Source: a virus (Duplodnaviria; Heunggongvirae; Uroviricota; Caudoviricetes). From it: a stretch of 64,000 nt of DNA. The position numbers were made by a program, and so were the translations under genes. The notes beneath the pieces were generated by a model. The model worked only from the letters and a program-made list of their open reading frames with translations, made no database searches and was not told the DNA's origin. Location of the stretch: IMG/VR virus record IMGVR_UViG_2529292906_000009, positions 3,303-67,302 of that record; one strand, written 5' to 3'. Below are positions 1,590 through 50,494 of this stretch, one piece after another. Within the stretch, counting starts at the first letter, position 1; every line of letters starts with the position of its first letter.

Positions 1590-2633
1590 TTATCTAACGC
1601 TCGACGAGTGACTTGTGATAGCGCCGACTCCAAGCGCGTAATCAAAGAACAATCGTTGATGCATCGCCAGCCTACCGTGCGTCTTCTCCCAATTATCGCG
1701 GTCACGCTCAATATCACGCTGGCATGACTGGCACAGAGGAATAGCATAAATGTCATGCGCGCATAATCGACTATGACGAACGATATAAGGCGTAATGTGA
1801 GCGCCAGCTCCCGCAGCTCCACAGCCACAGCATGGACGGGAAGCCACAAAGTCCATGTACTCGGGCAATTTTAGCGATTGAAGTTTTGGTATTTTGAAAT
1901 GCGCCATACCTGGGTCGGAGTCAACATCCACAGGGCATACTTTTGCACGCATCGGCGCGGCGCGTTCTTCCATCATCTGAACATATGCTGTAGCGCGATC
2001 GTCATACGGGCGAATATCCGCCTCTTTCAGAGGTCCGCTATCCTGCGGAGTAGCCTTCATCTTATTTATTGATATGCGGCAGACTTCTTCCGGCATCAGG
2101 TGCATCATGTTGCGCATGAAAGCCCACCAGCACAGCTCCTGAATACTTAAATCATGGCTATTTGAAAGGCCCATTTCCTGACGGGCGACATCCAGTATCC
2201 AGTTAACGCGATTATTGTGCAGCGTTTCTTTCAGCTCATTAAAACCACGCATCCGGTAATGGTTATCGTGATGCCAGCACAACAACACCGCGCTATTGTC
2301 TCGTTCAGCGTGGACAATATGGTTGTCACACCAACTACGATCTGCGGCCTGGCATTGACCCTCTTTCCTACGCAACCACGCCACCAGCGCGTCAATTCCA
2401 CCAATACGGCGAAACAGTTCATCGCTGTTAAAAAACGGCTGCAACGCCTCATTTGTTGCCATGGTTTGCTCGGTAACAACGAGGCCGTCTTCCATGTGCT
2501 CGATTAACTCACGCGGCACCGGCTCCATGATAAATTTACGGCCAGCCTCCACCAGCTTTCTGACCTCCTGATCCACTTTGAACGTGGCGAGGCCAAGCTC
2601 TTTCTGTACAAAGGGAGTAATTACGGCTTTCAC
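1590..2633 (-). CDS. Hypothetical protein, 347 aa, Cys-rich C-terminus (CCGCG...CxxC, possible zinc-binding/HNH-like); post-doc gene
   Basis: Long ORF in track; C-terminal CxxC pairs; position between doc and lpa. Confidence 0.55.
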
Positions 2634-2660
2634 ATCACACCTTTAATCACTGATTGGGCT

Positions 2661-2840
2661 TTATCTGCTGCCCGGCATTCTCTGTTTAAGCACAACCATT
2701 TCCTGACGGCATAACACAGCAATAGCGGTCCTGACTCCAATTTGCTTACCAACCAGGTATTGCTTTACCTTGCGGCGACTCACGCCATCAAGAAGCATCT
2801 TTAACGCTTCACGGGACAATTTGTTGTATTTGCGTGCCAT
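2661..2840 (-). CDS. Small basic hypothetical protein (post-doc)
   Basis: ORF 2661-2861 in track; start moved to second Met to avoid overlap with doc; weak support. Confidence 0.3.
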   Translation of the reverse strand: MARKYNKLSREALKMLLDGVSRRKVKQYLVGKQIGVRTAIAVLCRQEMVVLKQRMPGSR

Positions 2841-2844
2841 TAAT

Positions 2845-3225
2845 CTACTCCGCAGAACCATACAATCTACGTAACGTGTCGGCGACAGAAGATACAGATA
2901 TCTCGCCAGTCGCAGCGCCTACAGTAAGGTCTGCCAGTTCAGGTGAATCAAATACCTGCACCCCGTTACGGCGTAGAAATAGCAGCGCACTGTTTAGCGC
3001 GGTACGCTTATTGGCATCATTGAATATATGCCCTCTCGCTGTAGCCACCAGGTAGGTGGCGGAGACTTCGAAAAGGTCGGTGATCTCTTCGTAGGCAACT
3101 CTGGCCTGAACTCTCCCGATAATGGCCTCTGCCCTACCCGGATCTGACATTCCCGGCAGGCCGCCGTAGCGGCTTATATTCGCATCATGAAGCGCAATAA
3201 GTTCTTCCGGTGATATATGCCTCAT
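2845..3225 (-). CDS. doc: Doc toxin (Fic/Doc family) of the phd-doc addiction module
   Basis: 126-aa product recalled as identical or near-identical to P1 Doc ([22 protein letters not shown]...); start overlaps phd stop by 1 nt (TAATG). Confidence 0.95.
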
Positions 3226-3446
3226 TATCGGTTAACCAGTTCCTTGTTGGTGGAGTCCAGGGTGTCAAACAGGGATGCAAATTCAGCATCCAGCGCCGCT
3301 TTTTTGTAGGCTTCGAAAGTAGCCTTGCTGACAATTACTGCTGGCTCACGGCCTCTGCGGGTGATTTCAACCTCTTCCCCGGCTTCAACATTGTTGAGCA
3401 CTTCAGAAAGGTTGCCACGCGCGGTACGGAAGTTAATGGATTGCAT
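3225..3446 (-). CDS. phd: Phd antitoxin
   Basis: 73-aa product [32 protein letters not shown]... recalled as P1 Phd; immediately upstream of doc. Confidence 0.95.
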
Positions 3447-3518
3447 AAACACCTCGTGTACTCGTTATGTGTACACAATTATAAACTTCACAGGCATAAA
3501 GCACCAGCACTTTGCAGC

Positions 3519-3908
3519 TTAAATAACCGGACAATCATCAAATTCCCCACTTCGGGCATCATTGATGACATGAGTGATCACACCAAAAACAGCATTACTG
3601 CCCGTGTATCCATCGTCATCTACTGGTAACGCCTCTTTCTTCCCGGTGCTTAAATCCTCCAGGTGCTGGCGCGGATACTTCCTGTATCTCTTTATGCGAT
3701 ATTCACCCTCCATAGCGCACACAAGCAGAGAACCATCAACCGGAGTAAGCGAGGAATCAACCACCAGCAAAGCACCCTGCAATATTCCCTCACGGTGATG
3801 GCTATCAGCTGCCCGCATGAAGTAGGTTGCTGATGGATGCCTGATTAGTTGCTGATCAAGAGAAATTCGGCTTTCAACATAATCCGCCGCAGGAGAAGGG
3901 AAGCCCAT
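3519..3908 (-). CDS. humD: UmuD'-like protein HumD (S24 peptidase fold)
   Basis: GFPSPAADYVE...HPSATYF motif as in UmuD; LexA box directly upstream; P1 order humD-phd-doc. Confidence 0.85.
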   Translation of the reverse strand: MGFPSPAADYVESRISLDQQLIRHPSATYFMRAADSHHREGILQGALLVVDSSLTPVDGSLLVCAMEGEYRIKRYRKYPRQHLEDLSTGKKEALPVDDDGYTGSNAVFGVITHVINDARSGEFDDCPVI

Positions 3909-3927
3909 AGCGTTTTCACCTCAATAA

Positions 3928-3947
3928 TACTGTTCATTTATACAGTA
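3928..3947. promoter_or_regulatory. LexA (SOS) box TACTGTTCATTTATACAGTA
   Basis: CTGT-N8-ACAG palindrome in the divergent region between humD and the rightward ORF at 4083. Confidence 0.8.
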
Positions 3948-4082
3948 TACATTAAAGAGACACCTTTGGTGCAAACGCGTTACGTACATCAACCACCGCT
4001 GATGATTTTGTGCTCTTTGCTACTATTCATCACCAACGGATCAGCGTAACCTCGTTGCCAATCAGTTAATAAGGAATTAGCT

Positions 4083-4667
4083 ATGCCTAATCGCATTCCT
4101 CTCGCTCCTGTATTGCCCAAAAATTTTGACTGCACTCCTAACGAGAAACGCTCTAAAGCTCAGCTGGACGCCTGGTGGGACCATCCATATGGGGTTACAC
4201 AACCTGACGGGAAAATTGTAGTTTATTGTCTGAATGGTGGGGCGTGGGACCGTCCATCCGTGCTTTGTTTGGCAGATAACTATGATGAAGCCTGTGAACT
4301 TGCCGAAAGACAGCAGGCAAGCTGGGTAAAAACACGGTCTGAACCGACATTCATGTTTTCAAAAGAACCGCCATTTATACTGGCGAGGATGCCGCAGCGA
4401 CCGGATCATCAACAAGAAATTGTTGCTGAATTTTCCTCTAGGGATGAGATGAATCTCTTCTCATTAAAGCAGGAAGAAAGGGATCGCGTCGAAGTGTCTC
4501 CAACTCTCGACCACAACCGGATGAACCTGGCCCAACTCGCCTGGTACAGCAAAGAATTAGAGATGTCTATTGCCCGACTTGAAAACGAAAAAGCCGCTAT
4601 CCAAGCCCAGCATGAAGTAGTTCTGAACCGGATTAGAGAAATGCAAAACGATAACAGGGGATTTTGA
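4083..4667 (+). CDS. Hypothetical protein, 194 aa, divergent from humD and probably LexA-regulated (lxr-like position)
   Basis: ORF in track; shares the LexA-box intergenic region with humD. Confidence 0.55.
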   Translation: MPNRIPLAPVLPKNFDCTPNEKRSKAQLDAWWDHPYGVTQPDGKIVVYCLNGGAWDRPSVLCLADNYDEACELAERQQASWVKTRSEPTFMFSKEPPFILARMPQRPDHQQEIVAEFSSRDEMNLFSLKQEERDRVEVSPTLDHNRMNLAQLAWYSKELEMSIARLENEKAAIQAQHEVVLNRIREMQNDNRGF

Positions 4668-5024
4668 ATGGCTAAAATCGAGTACCATCGCGATCGCGGT
4701 AATTACCTGGAAATATACGATCATGAATCTCTTAACGATATCAACGATGCGTTATATGAATACTGTGAAAAAACGAGCATCACAGATGCACCTGATGCAT
4801 TTGTCGAGCTACCGGTATATCTCCGCGACATCTATGCAATACGAACACCGCCCGTATCGGTGATCCACATTGGCTATGTCCGCCTGTCCATCGAAGAAGA
4901 TGAAGATCGTTATATCGTGCGCCACTATACATTGGACAGAAAAGAACTTCCTAATGAATGGAACATGAGTAATTTCTACAACGGTGAATATGGCTTAAAA
5001 TCCACTAATAATTTACGGTCATAA
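4668..5024 (+). CDS. Hypothetical protein, 118 aa
   Basis: ORF in track; start overlaps the stop of the preceding ORF (translational coupling). Confidence 0.5.
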   Translation: MAKIEYHRDRGNYLEIYDHESLNDINDALYEYCEKTSITDAPDAFVELPVYLRDIYAIRTPPVSVIHIGYVRLSIEEDEDRYIVRHYTLDRKELPNEWNMSNFYNGEYGLKSTNNLRS

Positions 5025-5886
5025 TCTATACAGGCATGTATAACAACAACGAGCCTATTAGCTGTCAACAACGTTATTTTCTCAAATAAGAAAAAGCAGA
5101 AAACAAATTGTTTAAGGTCACAAATTGTGGCCTTGATGGAGGAGGGAGGCTTATTGGCTATGGCTAAAAATCAAATTAGACACTTCATGTTGCTGTAGCT
5201 CATCAAGATCCGAGGCCACAAAACCTTTTCCGAAAAACTTCACAAGTAACTCACTAGCCGCATCATTGTCACCTATTACACGAAAGTCATACGGCAACGT
5301 CGCAAGTTGACGATGTAATCCTGCTGAGAAAGTCGAATCTAACAGCGACCAGAATTCCCACCGCAGGATAATACTCGCCTCTTAATACTGTATATATGTT
5401 GTTACGATATGTTTTTCTGTCTCTAAAAAAAGATGTTAATAGAATGCTAACCATTGAAGGGGATAAAAATATACAATTCCAACAAACGTTATTTTTAACA
5501 ATTTTTTTCTTTGCGTTGACTTTCCCGGACACCTTGTCTGACCGAAGGTGCGCGAAAGCCACTTTTTCCTTCCTGAGTTATCCACAAAGTTATGCACTTG
5601 CAAGAGGGCCATTTTCTACATATTGTGGTGGCTAACAGATGAAATGAATGTAGATTAATTGAAGATAAGGAGAAAATTTGAGATGCAATCATGACGTTAA
5701 TAGATAGGGTCTGCATTACAGACCCCATCCGCATCAAGGAATTAGCCGTTCCCTGATGTTGTTCCGAAAACATGTGCCGTAAGCTCACGTTAACGACTTT
5801 CTTTCACCGAATCCAACTATATAGGGGTTGGGTTTCTACGTCAACGTGAGCAAGTGCTCCTTTACATTTGACAAGGAACCACCTTA

Positions 5887-6098: not shown

Positions 6099-6455
6099 TC
6101 AGCTTTCGTTGGCATTTAACTTCGTCTTTGCTTTCTCCACCAGCAACTTCCAGATGCCTATTTCATTAGCAGCCGCCTTGATGGCGGCATAAAAAGCATC
6201 TTGCTGATCGTAACGCTGAATCTGTTTTTTCAGTTTTGCCTCCACCAATTTAATTTCATTACGTGCTTTCTGAAGCCGAAGCGCCGCCCGGTTACGTCTG
6301 TTCTTGTATAGCGCGTTAATCTCTGACAATTGCTTTAATTTACCAGCCTGACTGCGGATTATCGCCTCTCTGACTTCTGCCGTGCGTCTCATCTGATCTC
6401 TTAAGAGTTCACCGTTTTCGATAATTCTTTCAAGGTGTTTGATGTGATCTGCAAC
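6099..6455 (-). CDS. Coiled-coil hypothetical protein whose first four codons are separated from the body by IS2 (native start ATG at 7798-7796)
   Basis: Native reading ATG AGA GTT GC / [IS2] / continues at 6450; track ORF 6099-6482 borrows a start inside IS2. Confidence 0.5.
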   Translation of the reverse strand, partial: VADHIKHLERIIENGELLRDQMRRTAEVREAIIRSQAGKLKQLSEINALYKNRRNRAALRLQKARNEIKLVEAKLKKQIQRYDQQDAFYAAIKAAANEIGIWKLLVEKAKTKLNANES

Positions 6456-6466
6456 TGGATTTGCCC

Positions 6467-7372
6467 CTATATTTCCAGACATCTGTTATCACTTAACCCA
6501 TTACAAGCCCGCTGCCGCAGATATTCCCGTGGCGAGCGATAACCCAGCGCACTATGCGGATGCCATTCGTTATAATGCTCGAACGCCTCTGCAAGGTTCT
6601 TTGCTGCCGTTAACCCGTCTGGTTTGGGCATGATACTGATGTAGTCACGCTTTATCGTTTTCACGAAGCTCTCTGCTATTCCGTTACTCTCCGGACTCCG
6701 CACCGCCGTGTTCTTCGGTTCAAGTCCCAACATCCGGGCGAACTGGCGTGTTTCATTAGCCCGGTAGCATGAACCATTATCCGTCAGCCACTCCACTGGA
6801 GACGACGGAAGATCGTTGCCGAAGCGGCGTTCCACCGCTCCCAGCATGACGTCCTGTACTGTTTCACTGTTGAAGCCGCCGGTAGTCACCGCCCAGTGCA
6901 GTGCCTCACGATCACAGCAGTCCAGCGCGAACGTGACACGCAGTCTCTCTCCGTTATCACAGCAGAACTCGAACCCGTCAGAGCACCATCGCTGATTGCT
7001 TTCTTTCACGGCCACTCTGCCTGTATGTGCCCGTTTCGATGGCGGTACAGCAGGTTTTCGCTCAAGCAACAGCGCATTCTGGCGCATGATCCGGTAAACA
7101 CGTTTGGCATTGATCGCAGGCATACCATCAAGTTCTGCCTGTCTGCGAAGCAGCGCCCATACCCGACGATAACCATACGTGGGCAGCTCTCCGATAACAT
7201 GGTGTATACGGAGAAGCACATCCGTATCATCAGTGTGACGACTGCGGCGGCTATCCATCCAGTCATCGGTTCGTCTGAGAATGACGTGCAACTGCGCACG
7301 CGACACCCGGAGACAACGGCTGACTAAGCTTACTCCCCATCCCCGGGCAATAAGGGCGCGTGCGCTATCCAC
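6467..7372 (-). CDS. insD: IS2 transposase InsD (OrfB, DDE)
   Basis: 301-aa ORF recalled as IS2 InsD; overlaps insC in the -1 frame. Confidence 0.9.
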
Positions 7373-7695
7373 TTTTTTGCCCGTCCATATTCAACGGCTT
7401 CTTTGAGGAGTTCATTTTCCATCGTTTTCTTGCCGAGCAGGCGCTGGAGTTCTTTAATCTGCTTCATGGCGGCAACAAGTTCAGAGGCAGGAACAACCTG
7501 TTCTCCGGCGGCGACAGCGGTAAGACTTCCTTCCTGGTATTGCTTACGCCAGAGAAATAACTGGCTGGCTGCTACACCATGTTGCCGGGCAACGAGAGAG
7601 ACCGTCATCCCCGGTTCAAAGCTCTGCTGAACAATTGCGATCTTTTCCTGTGTGGTACGCCGTCTGCGTTTCTCCGGCCCTAAGACATCAATCAT
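7330..7695 (-). CDS. insC: IS2 InsC (OrfA, HTH)
   Basis: [26 protein letters not shown]... recalled as IS2 InsC, 121 aa. Confidence 0.9.
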
Positions 7696-7793
7696 CTGTT
7701 CTCCAATGACTAGTCTAAAAACTAGTATTAAGACTATCACTTATTTAAGTGATACTGGTTGTCTGGAGATTCAGGGGGCCAGTCTAGCAACTC

Positions 7794-49785: not shown

Positions 49786-50494
49786 CTTTTTGTGCACAGA
49801 AAACCCCCAGCTAGGCTGGGGGTTCCGGAAAGCTTTCAGCTTTGAGCCAGTTATTAAAACCCCTTTTGATTTGTTAAAACACCTTGCGGTCTGGCAACTG
49901 CAAGTGTCAAACAAGAAATCAAAAGGGGGTCCCAATGGGGAACGAAAAGAGCTTAGCGCACACCCGATGGAACTGTAAATATCACATAGTTTTTGCGCCA
50001 AAATACCGAAGACAAGTGTTCTACAGAGAGAAACGTAGAGCAATAGGCAGTATTTTGAGAAAGCTGTGCGAGTGGAAAAGCGTACGGATTCTTGAAGCTG
50101 AATGCTGTGCAGATCATATCCATATGCTTGTGGAGATCCCGCCCAAAATGAGCGTATCCGGCTTTATGGGATATCTGAAAGGGAAAAGCAGTCTGATGCT
50201 TTACGAGCAGTTTGGTGATTTGAAATTCAAATACAGGAACAGGGAGTTCTGGTGCAGAGGGTACTACGTCGATACGGTGGGTAAGAACACGGCGAAGATA
50301 CAGGATTACATAAAGCACCAGCTTGAAGAGGATAAAATGGGAGAGCAGTTATCGATTCCCTATCCGGGCAGCCCGTTTACGGGCCGTAAGTAACGAAGTT
50401 GGATGCAAATGTCAGATCGTGTGCGCCTGTTAGGGCGCGGCTGGTAAGAGAGCCTTATAGGCGCATTTGAAAAACCTCCGGCTATGCCGGAGGA
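49786..50494 (+). mobile_element. IS200 (IS200/IS605 family), about 0.7 kb; ends approximate
   Basis: tnpA inside; terminal hairpins CCCCCAGC-TAGG-CTGGGGG (49801-49820) and CCTCCGG-CTATG-CCGGAGG (50475-50493). Confidence 0.8.
49935..50393 (+). CDS. tnpA: IS200 transposase TnpA (HUH Y1), 152 aa
   Basis: MGNEKSLAHTRWNCKYHIVFAPKYRR... with HxH motif (HIHML); recalled match to IS200 TnpA. Confidence 0.9.
   Translation: MGNEKSLAHTRWNCKYHIVFAPKYRRQVFYREKRRAIGSILRKLCEWKSVRILEAECCADHIHMLVEIPPKMSVSGFMGYLKGKSSLMLYEQFGDLKFKYRNREFWCRGYYVDTVGKNTAKIQDYIKHQLEEDKMGEQLSIPYPGSPFTGRK

Follow-up and report, generated by a model that had tools for sequence, protein, structure and literature searches.

The closest described counterpart of the locus analysed here is the phd-doc addiction module of bacteriophage P1 (Lehnherr et al. 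1993; M95666, AF234172). In that system the antitoxin gene phd and the toxin gene doc overlap by one base, are preceded by the promoter Pphd and a palindromic operator, and are followed by the downstream genes pdcA and pdcB; the proteins are identical to those found here. P1 Doc is described, in a passage of PMC9207808 that cites Castro-Roa 2013, as phosphorylating EF-Tu on a conserved threonine and thereby blocking translation. The C-terminal helix of Phd binds Doc, and how far the resulting complex represses the operon depends on the Phd:Doc ratio, a behaviour known as conditional cooperativity (PMC3920265).

The neighbouring gene humD encodes a homologue of UmuD'. In a passage of PMC7092418 that cites McLenigan et al. 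1999, HumD is called an 'already activated, shorter version of UmuD', and PMC9603915 states that 'humD is a LexA-regulated gene'. According to the latter source, P1-like phage-plasmids also have the 'humD-phd-doc cluster' in common, and the 21 genes of P1 that are extremely conserved include phd and doc. When P1 was screened genome-wide by CRISPRi (PMC10695390), lytic growth did not require lxr, humD, phd or doc, which accords with their being accessory cargo. The placement of phd-doc beside humD is already known and is the textbook arrangement of phage P1.

In this work, we analysed 64,000 nucleotides of viral DNA (positions 3,303 to 67,302 of IMG/VR record IMGVR_UViG_2529292906_000009), hereafter the window. 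An earlier, sequence-only reading had described an intact addiction module next to an SOS-regulated UmuD' homologue and had regarded the pair as known biology for P1-type plasmids. The P1 record, the cluster described in PMC9603915 and the occurrence of the segment in 486 of 5,426 complete E. coli genomes all agree with this assessment, and alignment confirms the identity of the parts (Doc and Phd at 100% and HumD at 128 of 129 residues against P1; 99.8% DNA identity to Salmonella phage-plasmid SJ46). Overall, the minus strand of this P1/SJ46-type phage-plasmid almost certainly carries two well-characterised modules of cargo here, independent of each other and arranged head to tail. What is mildly new is comparative only. 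That is, the LexA box appears to travel with humD and not with lxr, and the boundary of phd-doc is sharp at the humD stop codon.

The phd-doc operon and its control region

The genes and regulatory elements of the operon, together with the gene that follows it, are listed below.

2845-3225, minus strand: doc, encoding the Doc toxin (126 aa), a Fic-fold kinase
3225-3446, minus strand: phd, encoding the Phd antitoxin and repressor (73 aa)
3455-3477, minus strand: phd operator region, between the -10 element and the phd ATG, read directly from the sequence
3478-3506, minus strand: Pphd, a sigma-70 promoter taken from the P1 annotation (locus 3379-3407, offset 99)
2661-2840, minus strand: pdcA (post-doc gene A), directly downstream of doc on the same strand, as in the P1 and SJ46 annotation

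Both reading frames are full length, and their products are the crystallised P1 proteins. Doc is 100% identical to Doc of P1 and of SJ46 and to chain A of PDB 3K33 (residues 1-126), and Phd is 100% identical to Phd of P1 and of SJ46 and to PDB 3HRY/3K33 (residues 1-73). The family models agree: Doc reaches 38 bits with Pfam Fic/DOC (cut-off 24) and 133 bits with NCBIfam DOC_P1 (cut-off 38.65), and Phd reaches 49.7 bits with Pfam PhdYeFM_antitox (cut-off 29.8) and 48.1 bits with NCBIfam phd_fam (cut-off 20.8). Calls from PHROGs name a Doc-like toxin, a Phd-like antitoxin and, for the third gene of the cluster, a UmuD-like protein. Moreover, residues 66-74 of Doc read HIFNDANKR, which fits the variant Fic motif of the Doc branch, H-x-F-x-(D/N)-(A/G)-N-(K/G)-R.

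The organization of the two genes is that of P1-type Phd-Doc systems, with the antitoxin gene directly upstream of the toxin gene in one translationally coupled operon. The TAA stop codon of phd and the ATG of doc share one base (TAATG, at 3225). The ATG at 3446 yields the 73-aa P1 form of Phd; the open reading frame list also offers a GTG start two codons upstream. Across both genes only three bases differ from P1 (2917, 3145 and 3417), and all three changes are synonymous. A 139-aa open reading frame on the other strand (3210-3629, plus strand), which overlaps phd and humD, was set aside as spurious, as it is annotated in no related record.

The control region lies in the spacer between the humD stop codon and the phd start codon, which reads TAAGCTGCAAAGTGCTGGTGCTTTATGCCTGTGAAGTTTATAATTGTGTACACATAACGAGTACACGAGGTGTTTATG on the minus strand. 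Pphd combines a perfect -10 element, TATAAT (3478-3483), with the -35 element TGGTGC (3501-3506). Immediately downstream of the -10 element is the first operator site, a perfect 10-bp palindrome, TGTGTACACA (3468-3477), followed by a second, imperfect site, CGAGTACACG (3455-3464). The order TATAAT, TGTGTACACA, CGAGTACACG, ATG places two putative Phd sites between the -10 element and the start codon, as is typical of P1-type operons. There are zero differences from P1 across window positions 3418-3524, so promoter and operator are base-identical to those of the phage. In line with Magnuson et al. 1996 and Magnuson and Yarmolinsky 1998, both cited in PMC3920265, we take TGTGTACACA and CGAGTACACG to be the binding sites of Phd/Doc. 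Both the operator palindrome and the LexA box discussed below were located by direct pattern search. A generic promoter scan of 2500-4700 missed Pphd, its -35 element being weak, and an inverted-repeat finder run over 3400-4100 returned nothing, its settings being such that loop-less short palindromes are missed. Rfam gave no match in 2500-4200 even at E-values up to 1, and hence no sign of a hidden small RNA or antisense element in the module.

These observations leave virtually no room for the idea that phd-doc is a decayed or inactive remnant, similar in sequence to the P1 module and non-functional. The frames are full length, neither Phd nor Doc carries a protein change relative to functional P1, the few DNA changes are synonymous, and promoter and operator are those of P1; at the sequence level the idea is refuted. 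The module is thus intact by every sequence criterion. The claim of an intact addiction module stands on the full-length frames, on proteins equal to the crystallised P1 Phd and Doc, on the Fic-type motif, on the TAATG overlap and on the P1 promoter and operator.

Given this identity, phd-doc would act as a type II toxin-antitoxin addiction operon. Doc, the stable partner, would phosphorylate EF-Tu on one conserved threonine and bring translation to a stop, unless neutralised by the C-terminal helix of Phd. Phd together with Doc would repress Pphd at the palindromic operator, to a degree set by the Phd:Doc ratio (conditional cooperativity). Phd would be the unstable partner. Its degradation by ClpXP is reportedly what leaves plasmid-free segregants poisoned; a daughter cell that fails to inherit the plasmid would run short of Phd and be poisoned by leftover Doc, and such killing on loss would keep the low-copy prophage plasmid in the population. 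From the 100% identity to the P1 proteins we infer that post-segregational killing, ClpXP decay of Phd and EF-Tu phosphorylation would apply here as well.

Downstream of doc, the start of pdcA can be placed in two ways. The 2004 P1 annotation uses an ATG at 2861, which gives a 66-aa protein and a 17-nt overlap with the end of doc. Newer records support the start at 2840, and phrog_3345 matches only residues 8-66 of the 66-aa form; the 59-aa form of PdcA (start 2840) would be the likelier one. The next gene, directly downstream of phd-doc-pdcA, encodes PdcB (347 aa; 1590-2633, minus strand), which matches DUF968 at 170 bits and is labelled 'HNH endonuclease' in RefSeq phage records.

humD, its LexA box and lxr

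Upstream of phd lie humD and, across a divergent regulatory region, lxr:

3519-3908, minus strand: humD, encoding HumD (129 aa), a pre-truncated UmuD' homologue
3928-3947, no strand assigned: LexA (SOS) box TACTGTTCATTTATACAGTA, in the 174-bp divergent intergenic region between humD and lxr
4083-4667, plus strand: lxr ('LexA regulated function'), encoding a 194-aa protein; divergent from humD, with a regulatory region common to both

HumD is identical to the SJ46 protein at 129 of 129 residues and to the P1 protein at 128 of 129. The one difference, C103G, is common to SJ46 and falls in a poorly aligned C-terminal insert. P1 humD (McLenigan et al. 1999; annotation of Lobocka et al. 2004) has the same length and the same truncated, UmuD'-like N-terminus. 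The NCBIfam HumD equivalog NF051876 is matched at 220.2 bits (cut-off 120) over positions 1-129 of 129, and Pfam Peptidase_S24 is also matched, whereas the score with the autoproteolytic UmuD subfamily model (87.9) stays under its cut-off of 110. In a phmmer comparison with UmuD' (1UMU; E 2.4e-23), Gly2 of HumD aligns to residue 1 of UmuD', also a glycine, and the start of HumD likewise aligns with residue 25 of full-length UmuD (8GMT_B). HumD lacks the N-terminal tail of UmuD and the Cys24-Gly25 cleavage site, that is, it has the UmuD' form, and since its start corresponds to residue 1 of UmuD' it is made in the post-cleavage form. The full-length equivalog match and the alignment from UmuD' residue 1 uphold the earlier assignment of a UmuD' homologue adjoining phd-doc.

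The likeness to UmuD and UmuD' (PDB 1UMU, 1AY9, 8GMT) lies in the S24-peptidase fold family and in a common N-terminal motif, GFPSPAADYVE. Presumably the Ser and Lys of the UmuD catalytic dyad also have counterparts in HumD, as the two positions align with Ser and Lys. The differences are the missing 24-residue tail with its cleavage site, a longer C-terminal region and the genetic setting: the gene after humD is phd, and no umuC-like gene follows. None of the nine open reading frames of at least 400 aa, nor one of 338 aa, encodes a Y-family polymerase or UmuC-like protein in the 64-kb window, about a third of the element being outside it. This fits a dependence of HumD on host UmuC.

In the 64 kb, only the LexA box differs from the LexA consensus TACTGTATATATATACAGTA at three positions or fewer; shuffled sequences give an expectation of 0.01 such sites. 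TACTGTTCATTTATACAGTA matches the consensus at 17 of 20 bases; both arms are perfect and all three mismatches lie in the central AT-rich spacer. Likewise, the pattern CTGT-N8-ACAG occurs in the window at this box only. The 20 bp are base-identical to the feature annotated in AF234172 as 'LexA binding site in the regulatory region of lxr and humD' (locus 3829-3848, offset 99) and lie at an equal distance from humD in P1, although the flanking base 3948 is C in P1 and T here. The sequence-only reading had placed a LexA site at 3928-3947, and it is both unique in the window and a match to the annotated P1 site; the two ends which that reading gave for the whole locus are exact, as the doc stop codon ends at 2845 and the box at 3947.

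The box is upstream of both genes, at 19 nt from the ATG of humD and 135 nt from that of lxr. Its assignment was examined in three elements with a diverged humD, namely phage D6 (HumD 95% identical), phage Cyrano (92%) and the IncFIB phage-plasmid pEcoFMU073332c (91%). All three keep CTGT-N8-ACAG about 20 nt upstream of the humD ATG, at the following places:

3362-3381 of locus L008: LexA box of D6, TACTGTTTATTCATACAGTA
2897-2916 of locus L004: LexA box of Cyrano, TACTGTATACACATACAGTA
1908-1927 of locus L006: LexA box of pEcoFMU073332c, TACTGTTTATCCATACAGTA

The spacers of these boxes differ, the sequence upstream of them is unrelated, and no lxr homologue is present within the flanks that were fetched. 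Conserved arms, a variable spacer and unrelated flanks form the pattern expected of a functional operator belonging to humD, and since the box is kept with humD in three elements that lack lxr in these flanks, the box belongs with humD. The D6 box is contained in the 3' end annotated for a short hot-like coding sequence, which suggests that the call of this coding sequence is doubtful.

A different reading would have the box serve lxr, with humD transcribed constitutively or from a distant promoter and its closeness to the box incidental. The P1 record does place a predicted promoter, PhumD, about 480 nt upstream of humD inside lxr (window 4386-4412), far from the box, and lxr takes its name from being a 'LexA regulated function'. 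On the humD strand, moreover, a sigma-70 consensus scan found no good site at the box, so that no strong consensus overlaps it; the same scan also missed the annotated Pphd, with its weak -35 element. However, the box is far closer to the start of humD than to that of lxr, the three elements whose fetched flanks are free of lxr keep it at the same distance from humD, and a transcript from the predicted upstream PhumD would still have to cross the bound box. We consider this reading very improbable. Control of humD by LexA is supported by the annotation, a secondary citation and the conservation of the site.

For humD under the control of its own box, we infer from published P1 work the following course of events. 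LexA bound just upstream would keep humD off and would also repress the divergent lxr, whose regulatory region holds the same box. DNA damage would remove LexA, and HumD, a UmuD' look-alike made without the tail, would need no RecA-mediated self-cleavage before it joins host UmuC in a pol V-like translesion polymerase.

On the far side of the box, Lxr is of the SJ46 type. It has 194 aa, compared with 190 aa in P1, and is identical to the SJ46 protein at 192 of 194 residues; against P1 Lxr there are 177 aligned identities and 13 substitutions. Neither Pfam nor NCBIfam assigns Lxr to a family, and it matches phrog_6164.

Adjacency of humD and phd-doc

The 1.1-kb segment that carries doc, phd, humD and the LexA box is present at a coverage of at least 80% in 486 of 5,426 complete E. 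coli genomes, and is therefore ordinary; a further-reaching count that includes partial matches gives 1,397 of the 5,426. Most of the matching places in these genomes (1,465 of 1,561) are on plasmids. Among plasmids, 1,425 records match the segment, and in 477 of them the coverage is 80% or more. When the ranking was sampled evenly, most of the remaining records proved to carry only 2845-3522/3528, and these are often conjugative IncF plasmids. There are 190 plasmid records in the band of 80-90% identity, and those sampled are diverged matches to humD only.

It is conceivable that the adjacency is functional, with SOS transcription from the humD promoter running on into phd-doc-pdcA-pdcB so that damage raises or rebalances Phd and Doc. 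The genes are co-directional and the spacer between humD and phd is only 72 nt. A generic terminator scan of 2500-4700 found no terminator-like site between the two genes, nor does the spacer hold a stable hairpin (minimum free energy -17.9 kcal/mol, z = +1.2 against shuffles), and read-through is therefore physically plausible. The three genes are also kept together in 477 plasmid records and 486 E. coli genomes. On the other hand, most plasmid matches beyond those 477 consist of phd-doc with Pphd only and end exactly at the humD stop codon (3522/3528). In phi456, phd-doc occurs with no humD; the reverse is seen in Cyrano and in SSU5-like plasmids, where humD is present and phd-doc is not. 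D6 has an extra 140-aa open reading frame between humD and phd. Autorepression at the operator downstream of Pphd would, in addition, tend to buffer any transcript that arrives from humD. We found no published evidence for or against read-through from humD into phd-doc. If it did occur, antitoxin might for example be pre-loaded under stress, or Doc-mediated growth arrest might be modulated. On this evidence a functional adjacency is unlikely, and it is decidedly unlikely that SOS-derepressed read-through transiently alters the Phd:Doc balance in P1-type plasmids.

We read the adjacency instead as modular cargo placement, functional coupling being a low-probability idea. As phd-doc and humD are found apart from each other, the two modules work and travel independently.

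The junction between the modules is a sharp mosaic breakpoint. At window positions 3519-3528, which take in the humD stop codon and the upstream edge of Pphd, the humD-like gene of other phage-plasmids begins exactly, with phd-doc absent. The P1 record notes the same cassette boundary, with locus 2746-3424 being 98% identical to a conjugative plasmid. The humD stop codon is also the point where conjugative plasmids picked up the phd-doc cassette.

A stability module (phd-doc) and an SOS-inducible mutagenesis helper (humD) are both intact here, which has little import beyond correct annotation. In E. coli and Salmonella, elements of the P1/SJ46 type commonly carry resistance genes, and their persistence is explained in part by an intact addiction system.

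The P1-like element and its other features

From its DNA identity, its gene order and its backbone genes, the window is recognizable as a section of a P1-like phage-plasmid (SJ46/P1 type). Over 2600-4100 no phage record is closer than SJ46 (KU760857), whose Doc, Phd and HumD are identical to those found here. DNA identity over this interval is 99.8% to SJ46 and 98.8% to P1 (98.8-99.1% across several P1 records and P7). The gene order is pacA-lpa-pdcB-pdcA-doc-phd-humD, followed by the divergent lxr, as in the annotated records of P1 (AF234172) and SJ46; pacA is cut off by the start of the window. Elsewhere, the P1 backbone is represented by a DnaB-type helicase (Ban-like), a fused Dam/Dcm-type methyltransferase, ParA, a 1130-aa protein with an SLT domain and three tRNAs. 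The C4 antisense RNA with its a1b1 targets is also in the window.

To the right of lxr, the window shares the genes by which SJ46 differs from P1. The interval 4617-5548 is SJ46-like and replaces P1 hot (a homologue of the pol III theta subunit), upfO and part of the upfN region. A 118-aa open reading frame (4668-5024, plus strand; phrog_5797) stands in place of hot and starts at the lxr stop codon. This interval falls in 'highly variable region 8' of PMC9603915.

One difference from SJ46 is an IS2 element (IS3 family) at 6457-7782, where the homologues of pmgV and pmgU meet, with two open reading frames:

7330-7740, minus strand: IS2 orfA
6467-7372, minus strand: IS2 orfB

IS2 is absent from SJ46 at this place. 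Both SJ46 and P1 are colinear over the site, and 9 bp of their sequence are found on both sides of IS2. The insertion gives the pmgV homologue an altered N-terminus (a 127-aa open reading frame, 6099-6482). The insertion appears to be specific to this element, because no PLSDB plasmid spans both of its junctions. Finally, within the P1-like backbone, the Rfam family STnc490, an Hfq-binding small RNA, is matched at 49802-49925 (plus strand) with 146 bits against a gathering score of 56.
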